48,000 bases of DNA from Cyanobacteria bacterium J06648_16 (GCA_039817185.1 JBCBWI010000008.1:33335-81334); one strand, 5' to 3'; shown: positions 386 to 23,954, counted from the first letter of the stretch. Numbers and translations are program-made. The notes: generated from the letters alone by a model not told the origin.

Positions 386-415
386 CTAAACAGATTGAAC
401 CTAAACAGATTGAAC
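386..415. repeat. Perfect 15-bp tandem duplication (ctaaacagattgaac x2) covering the sulfotransferase stop codon
   Basis: Direct reading of 386-400 and 401-415. On the minus strand it encodes VQSV* twice. Confidence 0.9.
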
Positions 416-1384
416 AGGAACTCTCGTTTCACTGTAGCCGAGGCAAGCAAGCCTGTCTCCAGCAATCTCTTGACAGAGACTAATCTCTTCGGGGGACAGC
501 GACCGCTTCCAGTCTCCGACAGCGCCTTTACGAATGTACTGCCCGTCACCTTTGCGGCGAATCTTGCTGATATCTGTGGCACGAATGATGTGACTGATTT
601 GAGCATCATTCCAGCTTAAGTGTGCAAAATCAAATAGGCGCTTGAGATTGGCAACCGGCTCGGATTTGAGGCTTTCGTACCGAACGGCGTGAATTCGAGG
701 GGATAGCTCAGGCTGGGCGCGGTAGCGTTCACCCCAGTCAATGCAGCGACGCCACTGGCGAATCGCCCCCGCTGTGCCAATGTTGGCCCAGGACTGGGTA
801 GCGGCTAGGGCATTGTAAGAGGCGCAAACATCTCTGCCATCGCGAATGACCTCAACCACTTTGGCGTCTGGAAAACGCTGCAGAATCCGATCAACGTAGC
901 GAATGTGCAGGGGCGTTTTTTCAAGCAGCGTCAGACCAGGGCAGTTCTGCTGTTGAAAAAAGTGATCTAGCAGCAACTGAATCAGGTCCTCGGCCTGGGC
1001 TGAGGCGGGTTTAGAATTTTTCTGTGCTGCCGCGACCAACGCTCTGAAGTCAGCCGCATCGGCAAGACCGTGTAGCCCGTGACTGTGGGGGTGATTGAGG
1101 ATGTCATAGTCGCGCAGGATCCCTCGCCAGATATCAGCGGGGGTAAACCCCAACAGCAGCGGCTTAGGGCCGTAGCGTCGTAAAATTCCCCTCCAGCTGC
1201 GTCGCCGCTGAGCCAGGGGCTGATCGGGCAGGGTCAAAAAAGGTTCGTAGATGAGCCGGTATGCATGGGTCTCGACCGGAACAGCCACTACTTCTGGATG
1301 GCCTGCGAGCAGCGAGGTTACCCAGGAGGTGCCTGACCGGGGGCAGCCAACCACGAACAGCTTGGGGTAAGGGGCATTACTCAT
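401..1384 (-). CDS. Sulfotransferase family protein (PAPS-dependent)
   Basis: N-terminal 5'-PSB-like loop FVVGCPRSGTSW and a 3'-PB-like motif VIRDGRDVCASY. Its start overlaps the upstream GT gene by 8 nt. Confidence 0.8.
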   Translation of the reverse strand: MSNAPYPKLFVVGCPRSGTSWVTSLLAGHPEVVAVPVETHAYRLIYEPFLTLPDQPLAQRRRSWRGILRRYGPKPLLLGFTPADIWRGILRDYDILNHPHSHGLHGLADAADFRALVAAAQKNSKPASAQAEDLIQLLLDHFFQQQNCPGLTLLEKTPLHIRYVDRILQRFPDAKVVEVIRDGRDVCASYNALAATQSWANIGTAGAIRQWRRCIDWGERYRAQPELSPRIHAVRYESLKSEPVANLKRLFDFAHLSWNDAQISHIIRATDISKIRRKGDGQYIRKGAVGDWKRSLSPEEISLCQEIAGDRLACLGYSETRVPVQSV

Positions 1385-2531
1385 ACTGGCGCACTAGGGT
1401 ATGGGTAGGGGGCAAGGTAGAAACAGCAATCGTTTCTGGACTGAGCAGGGTCGCAAACGCTTGGGCACAGATCGCGAGGGTACGAGTTTGGTATTGTTGG
1501 TGGGCGTTGGTGGCGACAATTTGTAAGGACGTCAGCAGGTCGGGCGTATGGAGATGCAGGGCCGTCAGTTCAGCGGTAGAGAGGTAGTGCCGCCCCGAAA
1601 CCACGCCGTCCTGAGGGCGCAGCGATTGCTGATTGTTGATGGGCAGCAGTCCGTGGGCACAGTAGGCCGCATAGACCGTTGATTTTGCCAGATTGTTCGG
1701 GAATCGGCGGTAGTCAAACAGACCGGCAAAGCTTTCTTCCATCAGCTGGCTTACTTGTTCTGCAGGCAGAAACCCCGTTCTAATCAGCCTGATTTGGAGG
1801 TGAGATGCCACCTCCTCTAGCGTCTCGTCAAGCGGGCGACCGACATCGTAGAGCGTCTGAATGCCAAGCTGGCCGCAGAGGGTTTGCAGCGTTGACAGGT
1901 TATTGCGGTAGGCACGACTGCGATCGCTACTGCCAAACACCACCAGGGCGCGGGTGCGATCGCACAGTGGCTTCCCCCCCGCTGACTCCCCCACCGTCGA
2001 GAAATTGGGCAAGCAGCGGACCGATCCTGTCACCCAGGTCGACAGCGTTTGCTGAAAGGCCGTATTGTTGGTCACCACCGCATCGGCAACCTGGGCCAGG
2101 CGACGCGAAACCTGCCGCTGAATCGGGTTGGGGCAACGAATGCGGCGATAACGGAGCGTTGGCAGCTCGTGAAACATGACCACTACTCGCACCCCGCGCT
2201 GTTTGAACGCCGCGAGCCCAGCCACTAGCCAACCCGGCGCGTCCAGTTTGCCACGCAGATAGGGATAGTTACTGTACTGGAGCAAAACGGTATCGATCGC
2301 CTTGGGAACGCATGCCAGCAAACCGTCAATCGTGTGCTCAGTCAGCCGATGCACTGGAAACCCTGCTACCTGCTGAGTCGTTCGACGACTCGGTCTAAAA
2401 ACCAGAAATTCGGAGGCAATCTGGTGCTGTCGGGAAAGCTGTTGGGCCAGCTGTAGCGCATAGTCACCCACCCCATCCACATCAGGAGACAATCGAGGAA
2501 CAATTTGTAGAACTCTGCAGGGCTTCGTCAT
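1377..2531 (-). CDS. Glycosyltransferase-like protein (GT-B fold, GT4-like N-terminal half)
   Basis: The N-terminus RVLQIVPRLSPDVDGVGDYALQLAQQL resembles a GT4 N-domain, and there are MFHE and VADAVVTNN segments. I did not see a canonical EX7E motif, so the call is tentative. Confidence 0.5.
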   Translation of the reverse strand: MTKPCRVLQIVPRLSPDVDGVGDYALQLAQQLSRQHQIASEFLVFRPSRRTTQQVAGFPVHRLTEHTIDGLLACVPKAIDTVLLQYSNYPYLRGKLDAPGWLVAGLAAFKQRGVRVVVMFHELPTLRYRRIRCPNPIQRQVSRRLAQVADAVVTNNTAFQQTLSTWVTGSVRCLPNFSTVGESAGGKPLCDRTRALVVFGSSDRSRAYRNNLSTLQTLCGQLGIQTLYDVGRPLDETLEEVASHLQIRLIRTGFLPAEQVSQLMEESFAGLFDYRRFPNNLAKSTVYAAYCAHGLLPINNQQSLRPQDGVVSGRHYLSTAELTALHLHTPDLLTSLQIVATNAHQQYQTRTLAICAQAFATLLSPETIAVSTLPPTHTLVRQYE

Positions 2532-2580
2532 GATGGAGAATGCGGTTATTTTTAGAACCGATGAGAACCTAATTGAGCAG

Positions 2581-5076
2581 CTATGGTGAGGCTTGCCTAG
2601 CTAAATGCTGCTGAGCCAAATGCTGCTGAGCCAGATGCTGCCGCACCCGCTCGGCTAGCAGCGGTCCAGACCGCTGATTGAACAGATTGCCAAAGAATCC
2701 AGGGATATTGATAATCTCGATCGGGTCTTTGGCAACAACCTGCCAGCCCAGAGACGGCCCAAAGTACCAGTCCAACGTCTGTACCCGCGCGCGAAAGAGC
2801 GTCATGCGACCAGCGTAGAGTTGGGGATCGTAGCGATCAGCAGCGGTCTCGTTGGCTGCCTGGGCGCGGGCATAGCGATATTCGTAGGGAATGGCCCCGG
2901 TCGGGTCAGGTACCGTGTCAGAAGAGACAGATTCAGACTGCGCTGCAGCAGACTGCACAGTGACGGCCGCAGGCCGAATGCGCCGCCAGATTTTAGTCGG
3001 TAGCTGTGCCAGCCGCTCCCAGCCGCCATGGTAGTAGTAGTTTTTGCGCAGCCAAAAGTAGGCCTGCTGGAGCTGAAGCTGCCGCTGTACCAAAGGTTGG
3101 TTCGCTAAAGACGCGGGCCGATACGCATCAATCAGAACAATCTCCGCAATCTCTTCGCCCGCTGCCTGCAGCTGTTGGGCAATTTCAACGGCAACCGCAC
3201 CGCCAAAACAGTGTCCGCCTACCAGATAGGGACCTGCGGGCTGCACCATCCGCATTTCTTTGATGCAGTCTGTTGCCAGGGCTTCGACCGTGTGATGGAC
3301 GACGTCGCTACCGTCTAGATCGGGCCGCTGCAGGGCATAAAAGGGCTGTTCGGGGCCGAGCAGGTGAGCAAACCGCGCCCAGGTAAGCGCGTCAGCAGAT
3401 CCCCCGTGAAAGAACAGAGGTGGTTGGCTGCCGCTGGTTTGAATCGGGACGAGACTGGTCCACTGAAGCGATGTTTGCCGCTGGCTGAGCAGGGCTGCAA
3501 ACTGACGAACGTTCGGGGCTTGAAAGAGCGTCGCCAGGGGCAGCGCACAGTCAAGCTGCTGCTGCATTTGATTAAATAGCTGAACGGCCAGGAGCGAGTT
3601 ACCCCCCAGGTCAAAGAAACTGGCCTCAACGCTGAGGGGACGCACCTCTAGAACCGTCTCCCATATCTGAGCTAGCTTGAGCTCTAGTGGATTGGCCGGT
3701 GCGACAAAGGTCTCCTCCAGGGTTGCTCGACTGAGGTCACGGGCGTAGGCAGGATTATCTGGCGCAGTTGCGGCAAGCGTTATATCTAGAGTGGGTAGCC
3801 CGCTCCCGAGCGGTTGAGTAGGCGCCTCGACCAGCGATATCAGCAGAGACTGAAACTGTTGCAGCACTGATTTGAGCGTCGCTGAGTCAAACCCATTGCC
3901 TTCGATTTGTAGCGTGATCGCCGCACCTGGTTTAACTATCAGGGTTAGCCCGTAGGTGCTGACCACGCCCGACTGAATGTTGTTTACCTGCAAGCTGCCA
4001 TTTGCGTTTGCCTCGCGGATGGGGTAGTTCTCAATCACTAGCAGACTATCGAACAGCTGCCCTGAAATACTGCACCAGTCTTGAATCTGCGCCAGCGATG
4101 CGTAGGCGTATTGACTGGCAGTGGCCTGCTGGGCTTGTAACGTCTGCAGCCAGCTCAGCCCATTCTGTTCTAAAGCAACCTGCACTCGTACAGGTAGGAC
4201 GCTGATCAACAGGCCGACGATAGATTCAACCCCAGGTAGGTCTGCCTGCCGCCCCGAGACCGTAGTGCCAAAGAGAATATCGGTTTGACCCGTGAGCTGG
4301 TGCAGTAACAGTGACCAGACACCTTGCATCAGCGTGCTGAACGTGATTCGGTGCGATCGCAATAATGCCGTCACCTGCTCACCCAATGCGCTGTCTAATG
4401 TCAGAGAAGCTTTCGCCTGCGGTTTCTTTGTGTCCTGGCGTAGACTGCCGTCTAGCAGACGCCCTGCCTCGGTCCCCCCCGCCAGGGTCTGCTGCCAGAA
4501 CGCCTCCGCTGCGTCCTTATCCTGCTGCTTCAGCCATTGGATGTACGCTTGATACGGGGTAACCCGTTTGACCTCCAAAGCCTGCCCCTGCTGCAGCTGG
4601 GCGTAGGTGTCGAACACCTGATTGAGGACCAGCGCGCCAGACCAGCCGTCGAGCATCAGATGGTGGCAGGTCCAGACCAGTTCGTACTGGCTATCGGTCA
4701 GGCGAATGAGGGCTAGCCGCATGATGGGTGCTTGAGTGAGGGTGAGGGTGCGATCGCAATCGGCGCTCAAGAAATCTTCTAAAACCCGTTGGGGATGATC
4801 CCGACCGTCCACCTCAGCCCAGGGGAGCGTCACCTGCCGAGCAACCACCTGCAGCGGCTGCTTGACGCCCTCCCAGTGAACCGAAGTTCTGAGCGCAGGG
4901 TGCTGACCGACGACCCACTCCCAAGCCTGTCGCAGCTGTTGAACATTGACTAAGCCCTGCAGGGTGCAGCGCACATGCAAGAGACCTGCCTGAGCAGAGG
5001 TCTGCAGGCTATGCCAGAGAAACGCCTGCTGCAGCGGTGCTAGGGGATAGATCGCTTCGATATTCTGTTTGTCCAT
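2581..5076 (-). CDS. NRPS terminal module C-T-TE with no A domain
   Basis: C domain: IYPLAPLQQAFLWH and HHLMLDGWS. T domain: FFDLGGNSLLAVQL. TE domain: PPLFFHGGSA and YLVGGHCFGGAVAVE. No A-domain core motifs lie between C and T. The start overlaps the upstream stop (TAATG at 5074-5078). Confidence 0.9.
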   Translation of the reverse strand: MDKQNIEAIYPLAPLQQAFLWHSLQTSAQAGLLHVRCTLQGLVNVQQLRQAWEWVVGQHPALRTSVHWEGVKQPLQVVARQVTLPWAEVDGRDHPQRVLEDFLSADCDRTLTLTQAPIMRLALIRLTDSQYELVWTCHHLMLDGWSGALVLNQVFDTYAQLQQGQALEVKRVTPYQAYIQWLKQQDKDAAEAFWQQTLAGGTEAGRLLDGSLRQDTKKPQAKASLTLDSALGEQVTALLRSHRITFSTLMQGVWSLLLHQLTGQTDILFGTTVSGRQADLPGVESIVGLLISVLPVRVQVALEQNGLSWLQTLQAQQATASQYAYASLAQIQDWCSISGQLFDSLLVIENYPIREANANGSLQVNNIQSGVVSTYGLTLIVKPGAAITLQIEGNGFDSATLKSVLQQFQSLLISLVEAPTQPLGSGLPTLDITLAATAPDNPAYARDLSRATLEETFVAPANPLELKLAQIWETVLEVRPLSVEASFFDLGGNSLLAVQLFNQMQQQLDCALPLATLFQAPNVRQFAALLSQRQTSLQWTSLVPIQTSGSQPPLFFHGGSADALTWARFAHLLGPEQPFYALQRPDLDGSDVVHHTVEALATDCIKEMRMVQPAGPYLVGGHCFGGAVAVEIAQQLQAAGEEIAEIVLIDAYRPASLANQPLVQRQLQLQQAYFWLRKNYYYHGGWERLAQLPTKIWRRIRPAAVTVQSAAAQSESVSSDTVPDPTGAIPYEYRYARAQAANETAADRYDPQLYAGRMTLFRARVQTLDWYFGPSLGWQVVAKDPIEIINIPGFFGNLFNQRSGPLLAERVRQHLAQQHLAQQHLARQASP
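2584..3444 (-). other. Thioesterase domain with Cys at the nucleophile position (GHCFGG; TGT codon at 3208-3210)
   Basis: The minus strand at 3201-3230 translates to YLVGGHCFGG. The expected C-terminal GxH motif reads IPGFFGNLF, with no His. Confidence 0.75.
2603..2647. repeat. 15-bp tandem repeat (aaatgctgctgagcc x2 plus one degenerate copy) encoding HLAQQ x3 at the NRPS3 C-terminus
   Basis: Direct reading. The protein tail reads QHLAQQHLAQQHLARQASP*. Confidence 0.85.
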
Positions 5077-7028
5077 TACAGCACCTCCTGCATCAGCTGG
5101 CCGATAAAGCTGTCTAGCTCGGACTGGTCGAGGTCAGCATCGGGAAAGTCTGAGGGCGTAAAGCCGCCGCTGTTGTTCGTGCAGTCGGCGATCAGCGTCT
5201 TGAGATTGCGAATATAGCAATGGGCCAGATCGCCAATGGTCTCAGACCGATAGGCCCCCGTATCGTAGGCCCAGTTCACCTGGAGCTGACTGTCTGCCAC
5301 CCAAGCATTGATTTCGAGCGGGTAGCCCCTTGCATTCTGTGGATGTCGCAGGCAGCCCAGGTGAATATCTTCCCTAACGGATAGGTTACGAGTTGCCCCC
5401 TGCTGTCCCAGGTAGTTAAACAAAATCTCAGGAGACGACTGTGCCAGCTGAGCCCGAGTCGCTTCATCGCCGAGATAGCGCAGCAGGCCATAACCAATGC
5501 CTCGCTTGGGAATTTGGCGGAGCTGTTCTTTGACTGACTTGAGCGCTGCGGTCGAATTTATTTCTGAAAGCGTCAGTCTGACGGGATAGGTGGTCGTGAA
5601 CCAGCCAATCGTACGAGAGAGATCGCTTTGGGGAACAATGTGCTCTCTTCCATGCGCTTCGACTTCAACCCGGACGCTGCCTGTAGCCTCGCCCGCTGAC
5701 TGCAGCAGCGTTTGGACAAGGGCGGTCAGCAGGGCGTCGTTGATTTGGGTATTGTAGGCCGCAGGCACAGACTGGAGCAGCGCCTGGGTATCGGCACTGT
5801 CCAACGCTACGGTTAGGGTGCAGGTAGCAGCCTCGGTTGTGGACGCCGATTCGAAATCTCTGGATAAGGAGATCCCCGGCTCTTCAACCTGAGAACGCCA
5901 GAAGGCGATTTCTTCGGTCGGCAGATGATGCGGCAGGGCCTCCGCCCAGGTCTTGAAGGCGGTTGTCTTAGCGGGCAGGCCGTCAGCTGTGGTCAGCACA
6001 CGAGTCAAATCTTCTAATAGAATCTGCCAGGAGATTGCATCGATGACCCAGTGATGCAGGCCCAAGAGTAGCCAGTTCGGCTCGTGGGAGCCCCGCTGAA
6101 AATACGCGACCTGCATTAGACCAGCCGGGTCGGTACTGCGATAGAGCGGGTTGCCCTGTTGAGAGACTGCTTGGATTTGTTCGGCTTGACTCTGTCCTGC
6201 AATATCAAAAACCTCAAGGGCGGGCGGCTGGGCGCTGTCCTGGTTGTGCTGCTGCCAGCCGGTTTCGGTTGGATAAAAAGACAGCCTGAGGGCATCGTGG
6301 TGGGACCAGAGGGTTGCGATCGCACGCTCTATCGCTTCTAAATCGACCCCCTCGGGTAGCTCAATCAGTCTGGCCTGATGCCAGTGATAGGGGTCCGCCA
6401 TCCCCTGCTGCAGAAACCAGTGCTGAATCGGCGTCAGCGGGACCACACCGGTAACCTCGTCCTGGCTGATGACGGCTTCAGGTGACAGATTTGCCGCCGC
6501 TGCCAGTTCGGCAATAGTGGGTCGCTCAAACAGCTGGTTGGGTGCTAGCCTCAGACCTGCTTCCCTTGCCTGAGACACGATCTGAATGCTGAGAATCGAA
6601 TCGCCCCCAAGTTCGAAAAAGTTGTCGTGAATACCGACCGAATCGAGGCCCAGCACGCTACTCCAAATCTGAGCCAGGCTTGCTTCGGCAGGCGTGCGGG
6701 GTGTAGCTGATACGCTGGGAGGCGTTAGCTGAGGCGCAGGCAGCGCCTGGACATCGACTTTGCCGTTGGCATTACGGGGCATAGCCTCTAGCGGCACGAT
6801 AGCTGCTGGCACCATATAGTTGGGCAGTTTGGCAGCCAGTGCATGTCTCAAGTCGTTGGGCTGAGGCGCGTTTTCTTTTAGAACAACGTACGCCACCAGT
6901 TTTTGAGGCAGCTGGCTCGACGAGGGGGGCGCTACCCCAAGCTGACGCGCCAGGGCCTCTCGCTGGCGCGGCGAGAGCGACCTTACTCGTTGATATAGTG
7001 CCTGATTGGGGGCCATTGCAGAATTCAT
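5076..7028 (-). CDS. NRPS fragment: A-domain C-terminal piece (A9-A10), T and E domains
   Basis: The protein begins with an Arg-rich leader. It then reads KLVAYVV...LPNYMVPAAIVPLEAMPRNANGKVD (A9/A10) and FFELGGDSILSIQI (T). The E domain shows PLTPIQHWFLQ, HHWVIDAISW, EAHGRE and FNYLGQ. No A1-A8 motifs are present. Confidence 0.9.
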   Translation of the reverse strand: MNSAMAPNQALYQRVRSLSPRQREALARQLGVAPPSSSQLPQKLVAYVVLKENAPQPNDLRHALAAKLPNYMVPAAIVPLEAMPRNANGKVDVQALPAPQLTPPSVSATPRTPAEASLAQIWSSVLGLDSVGIHDNFFELGGDSILSIQIVSQAREAGLRLAPNQLFERPTIAELAAAANLSPEAVISQDEVTGVVPLTPIQHWFLQQGMADPYHWHQARLIELPEGVDLEAIERAIATLWSHHDALRLSFYPTETGWQQHNQDSAQPPALEVFDIAGQSQAEQIQAVSQQGNPLYRSTDPAGLMQVAYFQRGSHEPNWLLLGLHHWVIDAISWQILLEDLTRVLTTADGLPAKTTAFKTWAEALPHHLPTEEIAFWRSQVEEPGISLSRDFESASTTEAATCTLTVALDSADTQALLQSVPAAYNTQINDALLTALVQTLLQSAGEATGSVRVEVEAHGREHIVPQSDLSRTIGWFTTTYPVRLTLSEINSTAALKSVKEQLRQIPKRGIGYGLLRYLGDEATRAQLAQSSPEILFNYLGQQGATRNLSVREDIHLGCLRHPQNARGYPLEINAWVADSQLQVNWAYDTGAYRSETIGDLAHCYIRNLKTLIADCTNNSGGFTPSDFPDADLDQSELDSFIGQLMQEVL

Positions 7029-7057
7029 GGGTCAAGTACTCGGGGAAGCCACAGCTG

Positions 7058-8446
7058 TTACGGGATAGATTGTGCGTGTCTGGGAGGAGACCCGTTTTTC
7101 GCAGGGGACCGTTTCTGCTTTGCCAGCAGGGCTTCAACAATCTGAGCGGCTCGCTGTTCGTGGCGATAGCGACGGGTGCGATCGCACATCTGCTCAACGC
7201 AGTTTCGATAGGACGGCTCAGTCAGCAGGGTTCGAATAGAATCACGAATCTGACCAGCCGTGTCCTGCTCTCGATCACCAACAAGGCCCAGTCCGTGGTA
7301 GGCCACGCGAGCCGCGTTCCCGTTCTGGTCGGCATGACCCAGCGAATAAACCAGCATGGGCACGCCCGAGTCGATGCACTCGTTGATGGTGTTAATTCCG
7401 GCGTTAACAACAGCGCAGTCTGCCTGCTTTAGCACCTCAAGCTGAGGCACCCAGCCAAAGGCGTAGACAGTGGGGGGGAGCGTGCCCAGCTGTTCTCGAT
7501 CGAGCTGGTTGCCAAGCCCAACAACCAGGTCCCATTCTGGGCAGTCGGCGACAGCCGCTATCACTTTGCTCAACCACTGCCGATGCCCTTTTGCAAAAGT
7601 GCTACAGCTGCAGTAAATTAGCGTTCGCCCACGAGAACGTCGGTTTTCAAAGCGCTGTTCTAAAATCTTCCAGGTGTCAGGCGTAACGCGCGAATTTTGA
7701 CGGGCCTCGCTCACCATTGGGCCAGCGTAGTGCATCAGGGGATGGGGCTCATGGGGGAAATCGAGCTCTGAGGCGTTAAAGCAGAGGACGGGCAGCTGAC
7801 CTTGACCGAAAGGAATCAGCCACTGGGTAAAGCCAGACTGTTCTGAAAATGGGTAGCCAATCTGCCGGGCATAGCAGCCCCAAATCGATCTTCTGTCGAG
7901 CCCTACCCTCACCCATCGCTGTTGCTGGACTGCTTTCCAGGTCGTAAATCCGTTGCGTAGCCAGCTCAATTCAGCCCTTAACCAGCGGCCCCACCGATCT
8001 TTTGCGGGCATGATAGGGCTACTGATGGCGGGCAAACAGGGCCGTTTCCAAATGGACAGAAACTGGCAAAGCAGCACCATTGGGAGCCCGCTCATCACGC
8101 CTGCCATGATGTGGGGCGTCATTTCCATGTCAATTAGAACCAGATCGGGTTCGAGATTTTGAAGCGTTTGAGTAAAAGACTGAACCCCTAGCTCATCGAC
8201 GGCCCGCTGCTGGCGTGCCTGCAGCGTCAACAGCTTTTGCCATCGGCTCATCGGCGGATCGGCGGGTTGAACCAGCCATCGGTCGAGCTGCACGTAGTCG
8301 ATGCCCTGTGCGGTCACCGCTTGGCGAAAGTCGTGAGGGCTCGCATAGGTAACCCGGTGGCCCGCCTGCGTTAACTGCTGAACAAGTGCCAGACTGGCAT
8401 GGAAGATACCAGTCAGTCCCCCGGTAATACAGACAATATGTGCCAT
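7058..8446 (-). CDS. GT1-family (MGT/UDP-glycosyltransferase-like) glycosyltransferase
   Basis: The C-terminal nucleotide-sugar signature is GWVPQLEVLKQADCAVVNAGINTINECIDSGVPMLVYSLGHADQNGNAARV. The N-terminus is IVCITGGLTGIFHASLALVQQLTQAGHRV. The start lies 2 nt after the MT stop. Confidence 0.8.
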   Translation of the reverse strand: MAHIVCITGGLTGIFHASLALVQQLTQAGHRVTYASPHDFRQAVTAQGIDYVQLDRWLVQPADPPMSRWQKLLTLQARQQRAVDELGVQSFTQTLQNLEPDLVLIDMEMTPHIMAGVMSGLPMVLLCQFLSIWKRPCLPAISSPIMPAKDRWGRWLRAELSWLRNGFTTWKAVQQQRWVRVGLDRRSIWGCYARQIGYPFSEQSGFTQWLIPFGQGQLPVLCFNASELDFPHEPHPLMHYAGPMVSEARQNSRVTPDTWKILEQRFENRRSRGRTLIYCSCSTFAKGHRQWLSKVIAAVADCPEWDLVVGLGNQLDREQLGTLPPTVYAFGWVPQLEVLKQADCAVVNAGINTINECIDSGVPMLVYSLGHADQNGNAARVAYHGLGLVGDREQDTAGQIRDSIRTLLTEPSYRNCVEQMCDRTRRYRHEQRAAQIVEALLAKQKRSPAKNGSPPRHAQSIP

Positions 8447-8448
8447 GA

Positions 8449-9171
8449 CTAAGCTCCCCCCCGGTCAGACTTTCGAGCCAGGACGCAAAGATCCTCGACC
8501 GGCATGTTGTGGGTAAACGGAACGGAGGCGAGCGGATCGAGCAGGTCCAGCCGCCGGATGTGGCTGAACTCGTTGACTCTCTCAAGCTGATACTTCAAAC
8601 CCTCATAGTCGTAGCTCCACTTGTGGATCTGCCCAGGCTCGTCGACCGGGGCATAGCCGAACTGATGGGCGTGGAACGAGAAGAGAAAGCTGGCAGGCGC
8701 GTCCTTGGGAATTCGACGCTGGGCGTATTTCACGAAATAGTCCATGTGGCGATAGTTCGTGAAATATCCGTTGATGTGGGCTCGCAGGTCTGGAACCGTG
8801 ATTAACAGATAGCCGTTAGGTCTCAAGATGCTGGCACAAAATTTCAGCAGGTCCACGCCTTCTTCAAAGCTGAAGTGTTCGAAAACGTGCTGCATCCTAA
8901 TCAGGTCAAAGTCGCCTAACCGCTTCCGGTCAGACTCTCCTAACTGATAGATGTTGGCCTCGTAATATCGCTTGGCCAGCTCAGGAGACAGATCTTTGCT
9001 AGAGCCCAGATCGAGACAGATAAAGCCCGCTTCAAACCGTCGACTGCCCAGGTCTAACCAGCGAGTTTGGCCTGCATCAAGGAGCTGCTGTCTCAAGCGT
9101 CCACCCTGATAGAGCCCCAATTTCTTGAGCCCTCTAACGGCGGTGTGTTTTAACCAGGCTGTATTAGTCAT
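8449..9171 (-). CDS. Class I SAM-dependent methyltransferase
   Basis: Motifs WLDLGS (motif I-like), FDLIRMQHVFEHF and LRPNGYLLITVPD (Methyltransf_11/23-like). The glycine-rich loop is degenerate, so confidence is moderate. Confidence 0.6.
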   Translation of the reverse strand: MTNTAWLKHTAVRGLKKLGLYQGGRLRQQLLDAGQTRWLDLGSRRFEAGFICLDLGSSKDLSPELAKRYYEANIYQLGESDRKRLGDFDLIRMQHVFEHFSFEEGVDLLKFCASILRPNGYLLITVPDLRAHINGYFTNYRHMDYFVKYAQRRIPKDAPASFLFSFHAHQFGYAPVDEPGQIHKWSYDYEGLKYQLERVNEFSHIRRLDLLDPLASVPFTHNMPVEDLCVLARKSDRGGA

Positions 9172-9228
9172 TCGCTTCTTTGAGGGGCTTTTGAAATATC
9201 TGTTCGATACGGGTAATCGGGGTCAGTG

Positions 9229-14900: not shown

Positions 14901-17471
14901 GCGAGTGCCGTGGATTTTGACCTGGCGATCGCCCCGACCCCGATAGGCCAGCTGCCCGTTTTCTTGCCAGCGCCCCAAATCGCCCGTGCGGTAAAGTCTC
15001 TGCTGCCCTCGGTAAACAAACCGCTCTGCGGTCAGTTCAGGCCGATTGAGGTAGCCCCGCGCTAGCCCCGGTCCGCCAATAAAGATTTCACCCACAGCGC
15101 CCTGAGGCACCAGGTTAAGCCGCTCATCTAGCAAGTAAATCTCCGACCCAGCTGCCGGTCTACCGATAGCAACAGAGGTAGGGGCAACAGGGGCCGGTTC
15201 AAAACGATGGATCATGCAGCCGACGGTGGCTTCTGTCGGCCCATACTCGTTGTAAATCTCGATTGGGTGATCGCTGGCGTTAGCAATCGCTCCAGCCAAG
15301 GATGTTTTTAGATCTTCCCCACCTAAGATCAGCGTCTTTACGCGAGAACCGATAGGTTGTCCCTGGACGAGTGCTAAATGGGAGGGCGTCAGCTTGATAA
15401 TATCGACCCGATTCTCTTCAAAGAGGCGTTGCAGCGAGAGATCGATTGCCTCATCTCTTTCGGGGTAAACAACAATCTGCCCACCTGACAGTAGCGGAAC
15501 GAAGATAGAGGTAACGGTGAGATCGAAAGTGACTGGCGAGAACAGGGGAAACGCTAAGGTGCGACCGCGTACGTAGTGCTCAATAGCCCAAGAGACGTAG
15601 TTCGTCAGATTTCTGTGTTCAATCGCCACGCCCTTAGGCTGTCCGGTAGACCCCGAGGTATAGAGCAGATAGGCCAGCTGATGGGTCGTTGGGCACGTAT
15701 CGAGGTTGTTGTTCGGCTGCGCGTCTAAGACTAGCTGGTCCAGCAGCAGTGCCTCAGTCTGTCCGTCCAGGCAGTGCGAGAAGCTTGAGTGCGTCAGCAC
15801 CCAACGCGCCTGGGTATCGTTCAAGATGTGGGCGATCCGCTTTTGGGGATGAGCTGGGTCGATGGGCACGTAGGCTCCGCCTACCTTGAGCACCCCCCAA
15901 ATCGCAATCAGCATCTCAGCCGAGCGGCGCAGGCAGATGCCGACGGGGGCCTCAGCCGCTACGCCCCGCTGGCAGAGGTAGTGGGCTAACTGATTGGCCT
16001 TCGCGTTCAGCTGCTGGTAGGTAAGGGTTTGGTCGTCGCAAATCAGCGCTACCGCGTTTGGGGTCTGGGTGACCTGGGCCTCAAACCACTGCACCACGGT
16101 CTCGCTTACCTCACGCGGTTCACCGCACGCCAGGTCTATTAGCTGGGACCGCTCCGGTTCTTGAACCAGCGCGACCTCAGCAATTGGGCGGTGAGGGTTT
16201 GCCAACATCGCATCGACTAGCGCCAGAAAATGACTCGTTGCCCGTTCCTGCAGAGCGGGCTCAAACAGGTCGCAGTTGAAGTCAAAGTGCAGCTGCAGAA
16301 GGCCTCGGTCATCAAAGTCATGGACCTGTAGTCTCAGGTGATGACGCGGATCGCCTGCCCCTGGATGAATCCATTCGGAACGAACCGGTAGCCCATTGAA
16401 GTCAGGCAGCTGGTTGTGAATAAAGTTGAGAACAACGTTGGGGCTGCGACTAGCGGCCTCGCTCGCACCGGATTGGGCGTAGCGCAGCAGGCCGCTACTG
16501 GCGACATTGACCTTCTTGAACAGGGTCGAGAAGGTTTCTCCTGGGTCGATCTCTGTCTGTAGAGGAAACAGCTCAATGAACACCCCGACAGTCTCTTTTA
16601 GCTCAGCCGTGGGCCGACCGTGGGCGGGGGTGGCAAACGCGACTGAGCGGTTGCCACTGACCCGGTGCAGGTAAGCCAGTAAAATGCTGGCGATCAGGTT
16701 AAACAGTGACAGCTGGGGAGTCAGCGCCTGGGCTTCGGACTGAACAGCGAGCCGTTTGAGCCGGGCCGTTTGTTGCGCATCTAGCTCGCACGAAACGCGC
16801 CGCGTTTGAGCCGAGACCTGGGTAGCGCTGCGCTGATAAAGGTCGGACGGTGTCGCTGGCCGCTGTCGCCAGTAAGCCAATGCTCGATTAGATGGGGGCG
16901 GCAGCGAGATCTGGCTAAAGGCCGGAAGTTCGGGAGCCTGGGCTAGGGTACCCTCTACAGCACGCCGATAGAAATCAGCCATAGTCTGGTACAACAGCTG
17001 CACCGAGGCAATGTCAGTAATGAGATGGTGCTGATTGAGATACCAGGCGTAGCCATCAGGCCCCAGGCGAATGAGCGCCGTATCAAAGAGCGGTTTGGAC
17101 AGATCAAACCGCTGCTGGCACCGCTGCTGCGCCCAGTCTCGGGCCACCATCGCCGGGTGCTCGCAATGGCTGAAGTCGAGCATGGTCACTTCGCTGTGAC
17201 TGCTGGCTAGCACTCGCCGCTGGCTCACACCGTCAACGTCTTCAAACACCATTCTCAGGGCATCGCAGCGCAGAACGAGCGCCTCGAACGCCGCCTGAAA
17301 ATGGGTTGGACTAACCTCGCCCGCCAGCGTAAAGAGAAACGCCATATTGTAAAGCGGCGAATCGGGAGCCAGCTTTTGACCGAGCCACAGTAGCTGTTGC
17401 GCGGTTGTCAGCTCGGTTTGCGTTGACGTTGCCGCGTCTAAGTCGGGTAAGGAACGGGGGACTGCAATCAT
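11994..17471 (-). CDS. NRPS module C-A(interrupted by a PP-loop module)-T-E
   Basis: C domain: TTAQQLLWLGQ and HHLITDIAS. A motifs: LAYLLYTSGSTGQPKG, FDLTVTS, NEYGPTEATV, YRTGDLGR and GRGDRQVKIHGTRIELGEIE. After the insert the A domain resumes as LPGNLVPAYLIP and TANGKVD. T domain: FYELGGDSIMAIQ. E domain: PLTPIQRAFF, HHLAVDALSW, EGHGRE and FNYLG. Confidence 0.92.
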   Translation of the reverse strand: MIAVPRSLPDLDAATSTQTELTTAQQLLWLGQKLAPDSPLYNMAFLFTLAGEVSPTHFQAAFEALVLRCDALRMVFEDVDGVSQRRVLASSHSEVTMLDFSHCEHPAMVARDWAQQRCQQRFDLSKPLFDTALIRLGPDGYAWYLNQHHLITDIASVQLLYQTMADFYRRAVEGTLAQAPELPAFSQISLPPPSNRALAYWRQRPATPSDLYQRSATQVSAQTRRVSCELDAQQTARLKRLAVQSEAQALTPQLSLFNLIASILLAYLHRVSGNRSVAFATPAHGRPTAELKETVGVFIELFPLQTEIDPGETFSTLFKKVNVASSGLLRYAQSGASEAASRSPNVVLNFIHNQLPDFNGLPVRSEWIHPGAGDPRHHLRLQVHDFDDRGLLQLHFDFNCDLFEPALQERATSHFLALVDAMLANPHRPIAEVALVQEPERSQLIDLACGEPREVSETVVQWFEAQVTQTPNAVALICDDQTLTYQQLNAKANQLAHYLCQRGVAAEAPVGICLRRSAEMLIAIWGVLKVGGAYVPIDPAHPQKRIAHILNDTQARWVLTHSSFSHCLDGQTEALLLDQLVLDAQPNNNLDTCPTTHQLAYLLYTSGSTGQPKGVAIEHRNLTNYVSWAIEHYVRGRTLAFPLFSPVTFDLTVTSIFVPLLSGGQIVVYPERDEAIDLSLQRLFEENRVDIIKLTPSHLALVQGQPIGSRVKTLILGGEDLKTSLAGAIANASDHPIEIYNEYGPTEATVGCMIHRFEPAPVAPTSVAIGRPAAGSEIYLLDERLNLVPQGAVGEIFIGGPGLARGYLNRPELTAERFVYRGQQRLYRTGDLGRWQENGQLAYRGRGDRQVKIHGTRIELGEIEAALVAHPGVSASAVSLVLTTAPAQTGPVTYCTRCGIASNYPGITFDQAGVCDICQTYETYCDRTQQYFKSMDVLKVRLAAARQRRQGEYDCMMLLSGGKDSTYALAQLVTMGYRVFAFTLDNGYISDQAKDNIRRVVRTLGVDHQFGTTPAMNEIFVDSLNRHCNVCNGCFKTIYTLSMQLAYEKGIPCIVTGLSRGQFFETRLTEEWFTELFGQERFDVEQIDQTILEARKAYHRTDDAVSQLMDVAVFQTDDIFEAVEIVDFYRYCDVELAEMLAFLQDQVPWIRPSDTGRSTNCLINNVGIHLHTQQRGYHNYALPYSWDVRMGHKTVEAAIDELNDEIDVAEVERILQEIGYEDAQINKAQLAAYYVGAVSPTDLRTFLAQQLPGNLVPAYLIPLEQMPLTANGKVDFAALPDPQATRPELQSAFVEPQTAVEKTLAKTWQQVLKLDRIGVHDNFYELGGDSIMAIQIAARLSESGFALSPNQIFQHPTLAQLSAVVAPEVETAPEDLTGPVPLTPIQRAFFEQPSPEPEQFTQTVLLDVAETLQLPVLRSALTAVVNHHDSLRLRYTQTSTGWKQRYGERVDSVSVMKLDLTAQPNPQQTVSDAIAQLQAQLDLTRGDLVRAVLFDWGDRQQLGLVIHHLAVDALSWLTLIQDLETAYQQLNRGKTPDFPLKTSSYKSWANGLTEVTLPQAEVSYWQGQSLPLRQLGGSAQTEAEARTISRQLSDKLTQAFLQAALARPQEMLLAALALAMRQQTGQERVQVALEGHGREEAMVPNSRLTRTVGWFTSLFPVRFQTVASADETLQFVKTALRQVPRKGIGYGILRYLSEIGVEPTQPEILFNYLGTLEQLLPPASIFQFAQPLQVSRSPKQVRSHPLEISAYISRGQLHIDWRYSGLEADTVQALADGVMQHLRTLLMAPSRQVTATDFPLAKLNSKKLDRLSALLNKADRPGGQR
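13790..14829 (-). other. In-frame zinc-ribbon plus PP-loop ATP-pyrophosphatase module inside the A domain, between A8 and A9
   Basis: YCTRCGIASNYPGITFDQAGVCDICQ is a 4-Cys ribbon. DCMMLLSGGKDSTYAL carries the PP-loop SGGxDS motif (nt about 14578-14606). HCNVCNGCFKT is a second Cys cluster. Boundaries are approximate. Confidence 0.8.
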
Positions 17472-17475
17472 TCAG

Positions 17476-17715
17476 TTACAGGCTCCTATTGGCGAGGTAC
17501 GCATCAATGGCCTTGATGGTCCGAAAATGGGTAATGGTGATATCTGACTGGGGAATCTCGCATTCGAACCGGTCTTCGACAAAGGCCACCAGCTGCATAA
17601 CGCCCATCGAGTCGATGATCTCTTCTCCGAGCAGATCGTCATCGGCTTCGACCTGCTGACGCCCGCTGAGAAGCGTTTTGCTGATGTACTGTTTGAGAAT
17701 GTCTTGGGTATCCAT
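17476..17715 (-). CDS. Stand-alone acyl/peptidyl carrier protein
   Basis: 79 aa starting at the ATG at 17713-17715 (MDTQDILKQY...). It carries the phosphopantetheine-attachment motif EIIDSMGVMQLV. It lies 25 nt after the adenylating-enzyme stop and 4 nt before NRPS1. Confidence 0.8.
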   Translation of the reverse strand: MDTQDILKQYISKTLLSGRQQVEADDDLLGEEIIDSMGVMQLVAFVEDRFECEIPQSDITITHFRTIKAIDAYLANRSL

Positions 17716-17740
17716 GAGCGCAAGAGAGTAAAGACGTTGA

Positions 17741-19348: not shown

Positions 19349-19358
19349 CGTTTGGCTC

Positions 19359-20507
19359 CTACAGTCCCAACGACCGGGCAATAATGTTGCGCTGAATGTC
19401 GGAGGTACCTGCGTAAATCACCCCACCAATCGCGTCGCGCAGGTCTCGCTCGACCCCGATTTCAGTCAAATATCCGTTACCCCCGTGAATCCGCACCGCG
19501 TCTAGCCCTGACGCGACAAAGCACTCGCTCAGGTACAGCTTCAGCAGGGCGGCCTCTAGCATGGCGGGCTTTCCTCTCTCTTTTAGCCAGGCCACTTTGT
19601 AGAGCAGCAGTCGCGCCGTCTCTAGCCGGAGCTTCATGTCCGCTACGCGATTAGAAACTGACTGAAACTTGCCAATGGGCTGACCATACTGCTCTCGCGA
19701 CTTAGCGTAGTCCACGGTTTTCTCTAGCTGTCGCTCCATCGTACCTAGCTCACTGGCCAGATTAAAACAGCGATCATACTCCAGAGAGCTATGGGAGAAG
19801 CTGAATCCCGCACCCTCAGGACCCAGCCGGTTCTCGTCGGGGACAAAGCAGTCTTTAAAGAACACTTCGCCAAAGGGCGCGGTTCGCAGTCCCATTTTCT
19901 CTTTGACCGGACCGGTCGAAAATCCCTCTGTTGCCCGCTCAACCAAAAAGGCTGTCAATCCCCACTTGCCCAAAGTCGGATCAAGCGTGGCAAACACCAA
20001 GGCCAGATCGCAAATTGGCGCACAGGTAACAAACTTCTTGCTGCCGTTGAGACGGTAACCCCCTTCACACTTTTCGGCTTGGGTTTTAAGGCTGTATACG
20101 TCCGATCCCGAGTCGGGCTCTGACAGGGCATGAACGCCAATCCACTCCCCCTTGCACAAGCGGGGAAGATAGCGCTGCTTCTGGTCTTCGCTCCCAAACT
20201 GTTGAAGCAAGATTTGAACTGTCCACATCTGAGCGTTGAGGGCCAGCGTCAGGCCGTTGTCTTCGCAGCCATAGCCAAGCGCCTCCATCGCCAGCACCGC
20301 TGTCATAATATCGAGGGCAGGCGAACCGCTGTACGCCTCGGGCACGCACATCCCCTGAATGCCAAACTCCGCGCAGCGACGCCAGTTTTCCCAGGAGAAT
20401 TTGCCGTGATAGTCGCGTTCGATCACGTCATCGTTTAGCTGTTCTTGAGCAAATTGAATGACCCGTTGCGTAAACGCAAGTTGTTCGTCTGACCAGGAAA
20501 AGTCCAT
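19359..20507 (-). CDS. Acyl-CoA dehydrogenase family protein (likely an acyl/aminoacyl-carrier-protein dehydrogenase)
   Basis: ACAD fold motifs: ALSEPDSGSD, the GGNGY region and a C-terminal IYAGTSDIQRNIIAR. The C-terminal motif has Ala where MCAD-type enzymes have the catalytic Glu. A candidate Glu sits in SSLEYDR instead. Confidence 0.85.
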   Translation of the reverse strand: MDFSWSDEQLAFTQRVIQFAQEQLNDDVIERDYHGKFSWENWRRCAEFGIQGMCVPEAYSGSPALDIMTAVLAMEALGYGCEDNGLTLALNAQMWTVQILLQQFGSEDQKQRYLPRLCKGEWIGVHALSEPDSGSDVYSLKTQAEKCEGGYRLNGSKKFVTCAPICDLALVFATLDPTLGKWGLTAFLVERATEGFSTGPVKEKMGLRTAPFGEVFFKDCFVPDENRLGPEGAGFSFSHSSLEYDRCFNLASELGTMERQLEKTVDYAKSREQYGQPIGKFQSVSNRVADMKLRLETARLLLYKVAWLKERGKPAMLEAALLKLYLSECFVASGLDAVRIHGGNGYLTEIGVERDLRDAIGGVIYAGTSDIQRNIIARSLGL

Positions 20508-20573
20508 GAGAAACTAAGGAAGAAGGGGCAAGACGGAGAGCCAGCGAACCGATGACAAACCAACGGCGTGTTC

Positions 20574-21653: not shown

Positions 21654-21818
21654 CGTCGAAAGGCGATTGTTAGTGGGGGCAGAGAGCGAGGCGATCATGT
21701 AGAAAAGGGCTAATAAATGAAGTAAACACTGGCGTAAGGCGATCAGCCTGTGGGTATCGGCAGACTCCACCGGGCGGTCACCGTCAAAAAGGGATAAACG
21801 GTTTCACTCGCCCTTCGG

Positions 21819-23036
21819 TCAAAGCAGCCCCTGAATGACCGGTAAGACCTGCAGGTTTACATCGAAGGCTCGCTCTACAAACCAATAGAGCGACATTGCC
21901 CCTAGCGCAAGCCCACCCGTCTGCAAGACAAAGCGAGAGTAGAAAAACTGCTTCCGGACCAGATACAGCAGCGGAAAGACAACTGCAATAATCGCCAGCT
22001 GGCCGATTTCGACCCCTAGATTAAAACCGAAAAGAGAAAGCAACGCATGTTGGCTAGTAACGCCCAATTCGGCCAGTACGTCGGCAAACCCAAACCCGTG
22101 GAAAAGCCCGAATAAGAAAATGATCAGCCAGGAGCGACCTTTGAAGATAGGGATAAAAATATCGACCGCAACTAGGCCAATAGAAGCGGCGATGATCGAC
22201 TCGACCAGGCGCGAAGGCACCTGAACAATACCCAAGGTCGCTAGACCTAGCGTCAGACTATGGGCCACGGTAAATGCGGTCGCAATCTTGATGATGTAGA
22301 TAAACGCGGTAGAGAATTTACCAACGGGGTGCCATCGATCATCTTGACGCCGCAGCACCGAAGGTAGCAACAGCGCAACTAGAAACAGAACGTGATCAAT
22401 GCCCTCTACGATATGCTCGATGCCCAGCTTAACAACACCAACGAACCCTTGAAACAAACTTCCCGAAGAGATATCTAGGGTCTGAACTTGCCCTGGCTGA
22501 TTAAAAACCAACAGCGCATTGGATTCGTTACCAAAGGTACCGGTTTTCCAGTTTTCTTCAATGAGTAGTAGGTTAGTGTGCTGAGGCTTTTCAGGCAGGA
22601 TGACGTCATACTGCACCTGCAGGGCATCGGGCAACTGTTCAAAGCCCTCTACCACATAGTTCAGCTGCAGAAACTGAGAAAACGTGGTGTTGAGAAAATC
22701 GTAGTCTTGAAAAACAGCTTCGCAGGTTTGCGGCTCGCAGCCGATGCTCAAATGCTTAGAGACATAGTCTTGGATTCGATCAAGGCTGGGCTTGATATCT
22801 TCGCCGTGAATTTTTTTATCCGTTGGTAGGCCCAGATCGGCGACTTCGTTGAGATCTAGAACGGGAATTTCTGCTCGAGCGGTAACAGTATCTTCGGCAA
22901 TTTGAAAGTAGAGATAGCTCTGACCAGTATTGTGTGCGATCGCACCTGATCCCCAGCCAGATATCACTACACAGAGGCAAGTCAACGCAGTCAGGGTGGC
23001 AAAGACAAAGGTAGAATGCAGCGTTTTTCTGAACAT
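21819..23036 (-). CDS. HupE/UreJ-family membrane protein with a large N-terminal extracytoplasmic domain
   Basis: A signal-anchor sequence is followed by about 190 aa of soluble region, then TM helices carrying GIDHVLFLVALLL, FTVAHSLTLG, LFHGFGFADVL and GVEIGQL. Confidence 0.65.
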   Translation of the reverse strand: MFRKTLHSTFVFATLTALTCLCVVISGWGSGAIAHNTGQSYLYFQIAEDTVTARAEIPVLDLNEVADLGLPTDKKIHGEDIKPSLDRIQDYVSKHLSIGCEPQTCEAVFQDYDFLNTTFSQFLQLNYVVEGFEQLPDALQVQYDVILPEKPQHTNLLLIEENWKTGTFGNESNALLVFNQPGQVQTLDISSGSLFQGFVGVVKLGIEHIVEGIDHVLFLVALLLPSVLRRQDDRWHPVGKFSTAFIYIIKIATAFTVAHSLTLGLATLGIVQVPSRLVESIIAASIGLVAVDIFIPIFKGRSWLIIFLFGLFHGFGFADVLAELGVTSQHALLSLFGFNLGVEIGQLAIIAVVFPLLYLVRKQFFYSRFVLQTGGLALGAMSLYWFVERAFDVNLQVLPVIQGLL

Positions 23037-23921
23037 GACCTTTAAAGGTTTATAGAGAGCGTAGTATCAAGCGCAACGCAGCCTCACTCTTATCAAACAG
23101 CAACAATGGCTATCAGATAAACAATTTCAGTCTTGATTAAAGGGAAGGTGTCGTACATCTAGGACGGAAGCAGTAGCGGATGGCAACTAGTCAGCCAACC
23201 GACCAGCTATTTATGGATGTATCACTTTTAACCAAATAACGAACCCGGACGAATTAATAGAATTACGGACAACCTTCACATACTTTCCTAAATATACATG
23301 AAATATACTTAGGCTCAAGTTATCAAAACCAGGGATAAAAGACCGAAAATTCCGGCTATGTCCTTGCTCTTACTAGGTACTAACTGAGTACGCAAATGGG
23401 TTTAAAGAACGTGTGAAGCATGCTTAAAGTTCCTTTAAAGATGCCCTAGGGTCAGTAGGATCAGGGACAGCCCATCCAGGAAATTGTGTGGGACTAAATT
23501 ATGTGAAATAAATTTCATTGGCATCATTTTTTAGCCAGTCCTCTTTCCATGTATAGAGAACAACATTTTTTCTGACGTTTGAATCGACACACTCTCTATT
23601 GACTCAGGCAGCAGTTAACTGTCGATTAACATCGGGTTGAAATCGACAATTGCTATGTATGGGATTGTCGCCACCGTCGTGCCCGAAAGCGGACGGAATC
23701 AACAAACAAGCGTGCGAGATGGATAGGCTCTGTTATTTAGCTCAATAACAATATGGTCAGAGAAGGGCCGTCATGACATTCCGACTGCGGCAATATCAGA
23801 CAGGTTTCTTTCCAAAATTGGAAAGGGCCAGCGCTGGAGCGAGCAATTTATAGCGTTTCTCACTTGACTTGACTCTCTGTATTCAGATAAAAGCTCGATA
23901 AAGCAGCAGGTCAAGTGAGGC

Positions 23922-23948: not shown

Positions 23949-23954
23949 TATAGG

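Follow-up and report, generated by a model that had tools for sequence, protein, structure and literature searches.

A 48,000-nt stretch of the metagenome-assembled genome (MAG) of an uncultured marine cyanobacterium, Cyanobacteria bacterium J06648_16 (GCA_039817185.1, JBCBWI010000008.1:33335-81334; below, the window, with positions counted from its first letter), carries at 401-23036 of the minus strand a nonribosomal peptide synthetase (NRPS) gene array, in which the second module's adenylation (A) domain is broken between core motifs A8 and A9 onto two separate proteins, with free-standing tailoring genes in the gap. We regard this array as probably a functional biosynthetic operon (co-transcription is predicted) and as one member of a conserved family of marine filamentous cyanobacteria. 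Each enzymatic part has, to judge from its sequence, a known relative; new are the combination of the parts, the in-cis amide dehydratase/aminomutase (AMDH) module in cyanobacteria, and, above all, the conserved split of the A domain with free-standing tailoring genes in its A8-A9 gap. The proteins of this genome (MEO0756739-66) carry generic NCBI names only.

Read in the direction of transcription, the array encodes a HupE_UreJ_2 protein; an ornithine cyclodeaminase (OCD)-family enzyme; an acyl-CoA dehydrogenase (ACAD)-type flavoenzyme; a free-standing A domain; an acyl carrier protein (ACP); and a protein with condensation (C), A (with an insert), thiolation (T), and epimerization (E) domains. 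These are followed by C-A (core, through A8); a methyltransferase (MT); a GT1/MGT-type glycosyltransferase (GT); A (A9-A10)-T-E; C-T-thioesterase (TE); a GT4-like protein; and a sulfotransferase. This domain order, the three modules, and the trailing GT-like and sulfotransferase genes had been proposed in a first-pass annotation, made from the sequence alone, and are reproduced here by Pfam, NCBIfam, and core motifs, as is (by Pfam and core motifs) the break at A8/A9 around the MT and GT genes. The split consists of the following features:

9229..11994, minus strand: NRPS2a, 921 aa, a DCL-type C domain, the A core (A1-A8), the first strand of the C-terminal A subdomain (Asub), and a tail; Pfam finds C and AMP-binding, no AMP-binding_C
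9232..9330, minus strand: C-terminal tail of NRPS2a (TQRRDDVEDLVAALSALEPDKAEVLLAAVESEP), a conserved putative linker helix and proposed docking element, kept in 13 relatives
8449..9171, minus strand: small MT-like gene in the split, a weak match to PF13489 (1.4e-6, 28.6 bits against a cutoff of 27)
7058..8446, minus strand: GT1-family (MGT/EryCIII-like) glycosyltransferase in the split, PF06722 and PF00201, TIGR01426 at 137 bits
6903..7028, minus strand: N-terminal head of NRPS2b (..LYQRVRSLSPRQREALARQL..), conserved putative linker helices and proposed docking partner; Q13, R14, S19, Q22, and R23 invariant in 14 sequences
5076..7028, minus strand: NRPS2b, 650 aa, head helices, the second half of Asub (A9, A10 Lys), T, and E; Pfam AMP-binding_C (27-76), PP-binding, and Condensation

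NRPS2a continues for 31 aa past A8 and the strand EAVVVA, and NRPS2b opens with a 42-residue head, followed by KLVAYVV, A9 (LPNYMVP), and A10 (NGKVD, with the catalytic Lys). The break sits in the A8-A9 loop, which is occupied by the AMDH insert in module 1 and, in classical interrupted A domains, by M domains. In all 16 cyanobacterial loci compared the two halves are separate open reading frames (ORFs) in different frames; this, together with the own start codon of each downstream gene, argues against a frameshift or a read-through fusion. A8, A9, and A10 with its Lys are intact in all relatives (16 loci). No intein-like motifs were seen by eye in the short tail and head, although no dedicated intein search was run. 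The specificity code of the split domain, extracted with a GrsA anchor (for which the code of GrsA itself was recovered correctly), is DSALIAEVWK, given also as DSA(L/C)IAEVW, which corresponds to His in a survey of codes (PMC12283262). The first-pass annotation had seen the split itself; the His specificity, the experimental precedent, and the wide family had escaped it.

A GT-seeded search of species-representative genomes returned 20 loci. The order C-Acore, GT1 with or without other genes, Asub-T-E, C-T-TE, GT4-like, sulfotransferase is common, at 50-80% identity, to sixteen cyanobacterial loci, among them Leptolyngbya cf. ectocarpi LEGE 11479, Leptolyngbyaceae MAGs, Dapis BLCC M126, and Crocosphaera. 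The GT1 gene lies in the gap in each of them (16/16), and the other gap contents vary: the small MT; an Stf0-type sulfotransferase; an MT with a Sulfotransfer_3 enzyme; nothing else; or an extra membrane protein. The last case is LEGE 11479 (locus L004, 7547-9256), where a polytopic membrane protein of 569 aa, assigned to no Pfam family, lies between the A halves, upstream of the MT. The small MT is 68-75% identical in loci L004, L005, L006, L008, and L013, and no PDB relative was found for it. Its derivation from the MT domain embedded in sister lineages was considered and rejected, there being no similarity to the MT domain of the Nostoc locus L024. The sulfotransferases nested in the split of relatives are of the Stf0 (carbohydrate) type, unlike the terminal one, which resembles protein-tyrosine sulfotransferases (TPST).

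A protein search with NRPS2b yielded more than 40 distinct orthologues, which are ~640-700 aa long and align at full coverage with 50% identity or more; their hosts include Leptolyngbya sp. PCC 7375 and Heron Island J, Leptothoe spp., Adonisia turfae, CCMR0082, and LEGE 11480. When the first 110 aa of NRPS2b were used as the query for proteins starting with half an Asub, the top 150 matches, in a ranking by summed score, consisted entirely of giant multi-module NRPSs. The Asub-T part is 54-68% identical in the relatives, that is, as conserved as the flanking domains. The intact motifs, the 16 loci, and the more than 40 orthologues together indicate that the split is old, conserved, and under selection. 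An identical GT protein occurs with the same neighbours on four other public contigs (L001-L003), and the recurrence of this layout on independent metagenome assemblies shows that the split genes are not an assembly artefact. The cluster is thus no one-off but one member of a widespread biosynthetic gene cluster (BGC) family of marine cyanobacteria, a point that the first-pass annotation had missed.

An experimental precedent for the split comes from the corallorazine synthetases Crz1/Crz2 of Corallococcus coralloides (2024), where an A domain is split at A8/A9 after an embedded N-methyltransferase and is active in vitro only when both proteins are mixed; its authors presented it as the earliest experimental account of a split A domain, and no second one was found in the literature. 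As in the window, the A8/A9 break there distributes the domain over two ORFs, and a small C-terminal piece, needed for adenylation, opens the next protein. The crz genes, however, are adjacent, with the N-methyltransferase domain fused to the first protein, whereas NRPS2a has no MT domain and the halves lie 1.9 kb apart. The family of the window holds one to three free-standing tailoring genes between the halves, always GT1, plus MT and/or sulfotransferase, and a membrane protein in L004. Among more distant relatives of NRPS2a and NRPS2b, just this Crz arrangement was found in the Nostoc locus L024 (6280-11983), with C-A-[PF27704 MT] followed by Asub-T-E, and in the Verrucomicrobiae locus L026 (8001-10957), with A-[MT] followed by Asub-T; PF27704 is guanidinoacetate N-methyltransferase-like. 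About ten further Acore-MT proteins of ~775-785 aa suggest that Crz-type splits are commoner than the literature suggests. A further candidate, the Asub-T-E protein of L025 (P0367, 8365-11956), was rejected as a frameshift artefact, the upstream ORF degenerating after A7 and overlapping the next ORF by 47 nt. The survey of A domains interrupted by M domains at a8-a9 by Lundy, Mori, and Garneau-Tsodikova (2020) covers methyltransferase inserts only. Both A domains of the window use the same permissive A8-A9 loop; however, one of them holds an AMDH, and the site in the other is occupied by genes and not by a domain.

The tail of NRPS2a and the head of NRPS2b are conserved across the family, and in Nostoc L024 and Verrucomicrobia L026, as the motifs "..SLVAAL.AL.PE.AE.LL.A.EE" and "..YQRV..LSP.QR..LAQQL", respectively; in the MT-containing forms L024 and L026, the tail motif precedes the embedded MT. 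An AlphaFold2 model of the head has helices at residues 7-16 and 20-29, a disordered stretch at 31-42, and then the strand/helix/strand of the half Asub. We infer that the tail and the head are linker helices flanking the insertion site, which in the family of the window would re-associate NRPS2a and NRPS2b.

The split domain might instead be a decayed, non-functional remnant, with module 2 bypassed or with another A domain loading its T domain, and with the nested genes having landed in a dead gene. Such a reading draws on the fact that the domain is broken by stop codons and foreign genes, on module 3, which already shows trans-loading in this system, and on a few MAG relatives with extra breaks (L013, L015, L009). 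It is very unlikely, given that both halves keep all the core motifs down to the A10 Lys over 16 loci at the identity given above, that length and start agree among the more than 40 orthologues, that the His code is conserved, that the tail and head motifs are kept out to Verrucomicrobia, and that the comparable Crz1/Crz2 split is active in vitro.

The first elongation module holds the second interrupted A domain:

11994..17471, minus strand: NRPS1, 1825 aa, C (acyl-carrier-accepting)-A(Asn)[AMDH insert]-T-E, assigned by Pfam, NCBIfam, specificity code, and E motifs
13782..14795, minus strand: AMDH (PP-loop) domain between A8 and A9 of the Asn A domain, SGGKDS at 14577-14594; matches CysH

The insert comprises 338 aa (residues 893-1230 of NRPS1, SGGKDS at residue 960), with an end-to-end match to TIGR03573 (WbuX). 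By BLASTP it is 52% identical over 339 aa (E 9e-135) to the AMDH domain of CysH, whose sequence was taken from the source data of PMC7966384. Its homologues number more than 500 at 50-65% identity in many phyla, beside AMP-binding_C and PP-binding domains, and in the relatives of the window the AMDH is the best-conserved part of NRPS1 (76-89%). The code of the surrounding A domain, DLTKIGEV(G)K, corresponds to Asn and is also listed for the cyanoalanine module of albicidin; the survey notes DLTKIGEV for this beta-cyanoalanine module, the A domain of which has a 342-aa insertion of the alpha-hydrolase superfamily (PMC12283262). What the first-pass annotation had marked as A* within C-A*-T-E is indeed an A domain; what had been missed is that, as its sequence and the CysH match tell, it is a known kind of interrupted A domain, Asn-specific with an AMDH insert (CysH/AlbIV type). 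The idea of an N-acetyl-sugar-amidotransferase-like, amidine-forming domain, as for a bleomycin-like pyrimidine, was dropped after the CysH AMDH match.

Gross et al. (2021; PMC7966384), who coined the term AMDH, showed that the domain of CysH dehydrates carrier-bound Asn to beta-cyanoalanine and, once CysJ has hydroxylated the residue, isomerises it to isoasparagine. In vitro without CysJ, dehydration is seen; deletion of cysJ in vivo also yields Asn and isoasparagine linkers. Every BLAST homologue of this AMDH belongs to an Asn-specific A domain, and no metabolite has been linked to any of them, including that of Leptolyngbya sp. Heron Island J (PMC7966384). CysH (cystobactamid) and AlbIV (albicidin) share with NRPS1 the Asn-specific A domain with a ~340-aa PP-loop (SGGKD) domain between A8 and A9. 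In the window, however, the AMDH stands in cis in a full C-A-T-E elongation module, whereas CysH is a stand-alone A-T protein, the product of which is shuttled by CysB; and the CysJ hydroxylase, CysQ O-methyltransferase, CysB, and para-aminobenzoic acid (PABA) chemistry of the cystobactamid system have no counterpart in the window, the host of which is a cyanobacterium.

The C-like Pfam domains after T1 and T2 carry E-type motifs and are epimerases. This agrees with the earlier claim of two E domains with a C domain after each: both have PIQxxF, E(G/A)HGRE, RT(V/I)GWF, and FNYLG, and the T domains have LGGDSI. The first C domain, that of NRPS1, resembles the C domains of EntF and MxcG, to which free-standing carrier proteins deliver the acyl groups. 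Among the relatives, L017 keeps the Asn code and has no E domain in module 1, and in L014 the code of module 1 differs (DVWYLGGV) and an additional MT gene separates NRPS1 from NRPS2a.

Such an acyl group would come from the genes upstream of NRPS1:

21819..23036, minus strand: HupE/UreJ_2-family membrane protein, 405 aa, the first gene; PF13795, 4.7e-44; N-terminal extension of ~200 aa
20574..21770, minus strand: ornithine cyclodeaminase/mu-crystallin family enzyme; PF02423, 7.8e-61
19359..20507, minus strand: predicted prolyl-carrier-protein dehydrogenase, AnaB-like ACAD; best PDB match AnaB 4IRN, 2.1e-126, 425 bits
17741..19348, minus strand: free-standing A domain of the PltF/AnaC type; best single-domain PDB match PltF 6O6E (L-proline-[prolyl carrier protein] ligase), 2.1e-86
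17476..17715, minus strand: free-standing carrier protein, 79 aa, Ser in a DSM motif; PF00550; a 79-aa gene is also called on L001

As a prediction, the proposed Orn/Pro-type OCD-ACAD-A-ACP starter cassette is supported by the AnaB-like ACAD, the PltF-like A domain, and the OCD-family gene upstream. In the PDB comparison, PigA 5ZW0 follows AnaB as the second match of the ACAD (306 bits, 3.6e-90); its NCBIfam scores for the equivalogs PigA (410 bits, cutoff 500) and RedW (362 bits, cutoff 650) do not reach the cutoffs. The OCD gene is assigned at the family level only (PRK07589, 193 bits against a cutoff of 350) and is not present in the relative L017. The gene of the free A domain probably starts at Met12, TTG at 19381 being a mechanical ORF start, and the gene call on L001 gives 535 aa; its code, DMLYLGVQCK, was matched to no published Pro code. 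LgrA, the top-scoring PDB relative of this domain, was rejected since its score sums two A domains. The ACAD-A-ACP order is that of the ana genes. The set of free A domain, free carrier protein, and ACAD-type flavoenzyme recurs in AnaB/AnaC/AnaD (anatoxin-a) and, in pyrrole pathways, in PltE/PltF/PltL and PigA/RedW; unlike in these prolyl-carrier-protein systems, where a PKS or a halogenase follows, the cassette of the window feeds an NRPS C domain, and, unlike the Ana/Plt/Pig cassettes, it has an attached OCD-family gene and a HupE-like membrane protein. The latter gene stands beside the cassette in L010, L012, and L017 as well (52-83% identity), even where the orientation changes; its travelling with the cassette suggests that it belongs to the cluster.

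With all the individual parts known, the cluster could belong to an already characterised family with a known product, all the more so as it has been set apart from the MIBiG clusters by literature and gene content and not by a MIBiG comparison. The evidence makes this most unlikely. The literature on the insert domain, the strains, and the split gave no product assignment, with subscription journals mostly outside its coverage; no characterised cluster or product was found there, nor any paper on the AMDH-type insert newer than PMC7966384, which explicitly places the Leptolyngbya homologue among the uncharacterised ones. The first-pass annotation had taken the gene order to differ from those of the aeruginosin, cyanopeptolin, anabaenopeptin, microginin, spumigin, and anatoxin clusters. 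The assembly lines of albicidin and cystobactamid build on PABA and have an A-AMDH-T that stands alone. Among the 13 genes, Pfam shows no PKS genes, as would be expected for anatoxin, and no look-alikes of the aeruginosin Choi pathway, although no Choi enzyme sequence was compared. Orphan status is consistent with the generic protein names, with the statement in PMC7966384, and with the Leptothoe genome paper, which reports mostly product-less BGCs; it rests on this literature and not on MIBiG.

The remaining genes of the array encode the terminal module and the last tailoring enzymes:

2581..5076, minus strand: NRPS3, 831 aa, C-T-TE by Pfam, with HHLMLDGWS present
3208..3210, minus strand: active-site Cys codon of the TE (GHCFGG, residue 623 of NRPS3), assigned by the GHC(F/L)GG motif
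1377..2531, minus strand: GT4-like protein, a weak assignment (PF13579 5e-6, PF13439 1e-5, both below cutoffs)
401..1384, minus strand: sulfotransferase, the last gene; PF13469, 2.3e-32

The C-T-TE order of the third module was read correctly in the first-pass annotation, which overlooked that this module lacks an A domain and that the nucleophile of the TE is Cys, not Ser; GHC(F/L)GG is invariant in 15 of the 15 family loci examined. Cys-TEs are rare and are linked to strained-ring release (ObiF, beta-lactone; SulM, beta-lactam). The terminal TEs of ObiF and SulM likewise have a GxCxG nucleophile elbow, a likeness that is only a lead; a sulfotransferase lies in the sulfazecin cluster as well. 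Unlike the ObiF and SulM systems, the cluster has no supply genes for 2,3-diaminopropionate or a beta-hydroxy amino acid. NRPS3 has no A domain in any family member, hence T3 must be loaded in trans; a comparison of carrier domains gave no clue to the A domain that loads it. The GT4-like protein is conserved in the relatives at 39-63%. The closest solved relatives of the terminal sulfotransferase are protein-tyrosine sulfotransferases (3.8e-12).

Taken together, the array would probably make a short peptide containing D residues, which is glycosylated, methylated, and sulfated; we hold the overall biosynthetic scheme, too, to be rather likely, with lower confidence in the individual chemical steps. 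In this scheme, the OCD-family enzyme would probably supply L-Pro from Orn; the PltF/AnaC-like A domain would, by homology, load it on the free carrier protein; and the AnaB-like flavoenzyme would oxidise it to a pyrroline-5-carboxyl (AnaB-like, two-electron) or a pyrrole-2-carboxyl (four-electron) starter. The first C domain would join this Pro-derived starter to Asn, as the code suggests; the AMDH domain would convert carrier-bound Asn to beta-cyanoalanine (Cya), and the E domain would epimerise the residue. The predicted default product of module 1 is D-configured beta-cyanoalanine, isoasparagine or Asn being less likely; isoasparagine may still form, as no CysJ-type hydroxylase is encoded here. 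Module 2 would, given its code, add His, for which the 921-aa C-Acore and the 650-aa Asub-T-E proteins would have to reassemble, probably via the tail and head helices and as in the Crz1/Crz2 precedent; the E domain of NRPS2b would then epimerise the His residue. C-T-TE would add a unit loaded in trans, at a guess Pro from the free A domain, and the Cys-TE would release the chain, possibly with an unusual cyclisation. The gap-encoded GT and MT, the GT4-like protein, and the TPST-like sulfotransferase would decorate the product, and transport of the product or of a metal may be the role of the HupE-like membrane protein.

An extension of this scheme, which we consider improbable, is that the linker helices also recruit the gap-encoded GT (and the MT or sulfotransferase), so that a non-covalent interrupted A domain would arise with on-line glycosylation of the carrier-bound intermediate; the product would then be a D-peptide with a cyclic imine or pyrrole cap, a beta-cyanoalanine nitrile, sugar, and sulfate, and the HupE-like protein would handle the product or its metal complex.

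Several observations pull against the proposed scheme. A Pro-Cya-His peptide has no obvious hydroxyl as an acceptor for the GT; module 3 has no A domain of its own to load T3; and the assignments of both the small MT and the GT4-like protein are weak. The docking idea rests on motif conservation: the head helices are modelled with a pLDDT of only 59-68; the head profile matched in the PDB the CurG-CurH docking fusion 4MYY (class 2 type) at a non-significant E of 0.18; the tail profile had no docking-domain match in the PDB; and the only other matches of the profiles were de novo designed proteins. L014 (3113-4843) and L017 (4955-6865) have no AMDH insert in module 1, so the nitrile is no constant of the family. 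The reliance of orphan status on literature and gene content, given above, belongs here as well.

The sugar- and sulfate-transferring enzymes also bear on another reading, in which the assembly line makes an acyl-peptidyl decoration for a sugar, glycolipid, or polysaccharide, the glycosyl- and sulfotransferases acting on the glycan. In Bacteroidota, L018 (83-20081) and L019 (2057-17106) are polysaccharide loci of the Wza/Wzc/Wzy kind in which the same ACAD-A-ACP-C-A(AMDH)-T cassette is embedded together with a GT1 homologue, next to GT11 or TylF-type MT, GT4, acetyltransferase, and sulfotransferase genes and with no TE in either MAG locus; it is from this setting that the minority reading of a peptide decorating a glycan arises. 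The variable genes in the cyanobacterial split, which include sulfotransferases of the carbohydrate (Stf0) type, fit it as well. The cyanobacterial family, however, has a complete termination module with a TE, no Wza/Wzc/Wzy genes are present in the window or on L001, the terminal sulfotransferase is closest to peptide-tyrosine sulfotransferases, and GT1/MGT-type enzymes usually act on small molecules. We thus consider the glycan reading unlikely and the decorated free peptide the better account.

The layout of the array is exactly as first described. ORF calls and recomputed junctions bear out 13 tightly packed co-directional ORFs; the TAATG stop/start overlaps at 5074-5078 and 11992-11996 and the 8-nt overlap of the GT4-like and sulfotransferase genes at 1377-1384 were found again, and the remaining spacers do not exceed 66 nt (2, 4, 25, 29, 48, 49, 57, and 66 nt). 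As had been stated, the gap between the HupE-like and OCD genes depends on the start of the latter: it is 48 nt if GTG is used and widens to 120 nt for Met25 or 165 nt for Met40. The reported lack of MbtH and phosphopantetheinyl transferase genes stands, with no such motif in any frame of the window, and so does that of an ABC exporter for the cluster, the only ABC ATPase of the window (44026-45024) adjoining an LptF/G permease and being unrelated to the cluster. Past the sulfotransferase, nothing but small ORFs and a DUF6348 gene follows on L001, and the cluster therefore extends no further. Scans for promoters and terminators gave nothing above chance; one sigma-70-like site at 23318-23291 of the minus strand is likewise not above chance. 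Around the 0.9 kb of intergenic DNA upstream of the HupE-like gene, at 22001-24000, GC content falls to 0.46, compared with ~0.57 elsewhere.

The other 25 kb of the window are cyanobacterial housekeeping genes (phycobilisome linker, DXS, LptF/G and the ABC ATPase, CbiX, and polyamine genes). Just outside the cluster, at 25697-28163, an arginase/agmatinase-family gene adjoins a fused S-adenosylmethionine decarboxylase-spermidine synthase gene (427 aa), forming a polyamine module; at 30227-33135, the plus strand has a small unit that comprises an extracytoplasmic function (ECF) sigma factor, an anti-sigma factor of the RskA type, and a flavin amine oxidase.

The family shows that an A8-A9 break can be old and widespread and tolerates whole tailoring genes, which bears both on the evolution of interrupted A domains and on the choice of NRPS cut sites for engineering. 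The known products of AMDH domains are only the gyrase inhibitors albicidin and cystobactamid, and the cluster of the window points to new nitrile- or isoasparagine-containing peptides. If the on-line glycosylation reading is true, the product would represent a new class of natural product, with the nitrile as a possible covalent warhead or a metal ligand next to His. As members of the family are found in strains that can be cultured (Leptolyngbya sp. PCC 7375, LEGE 11479, Leptothoe spp., Adonisia turfae, Dapis BLCC M126), its product and enzymology are directly testable.

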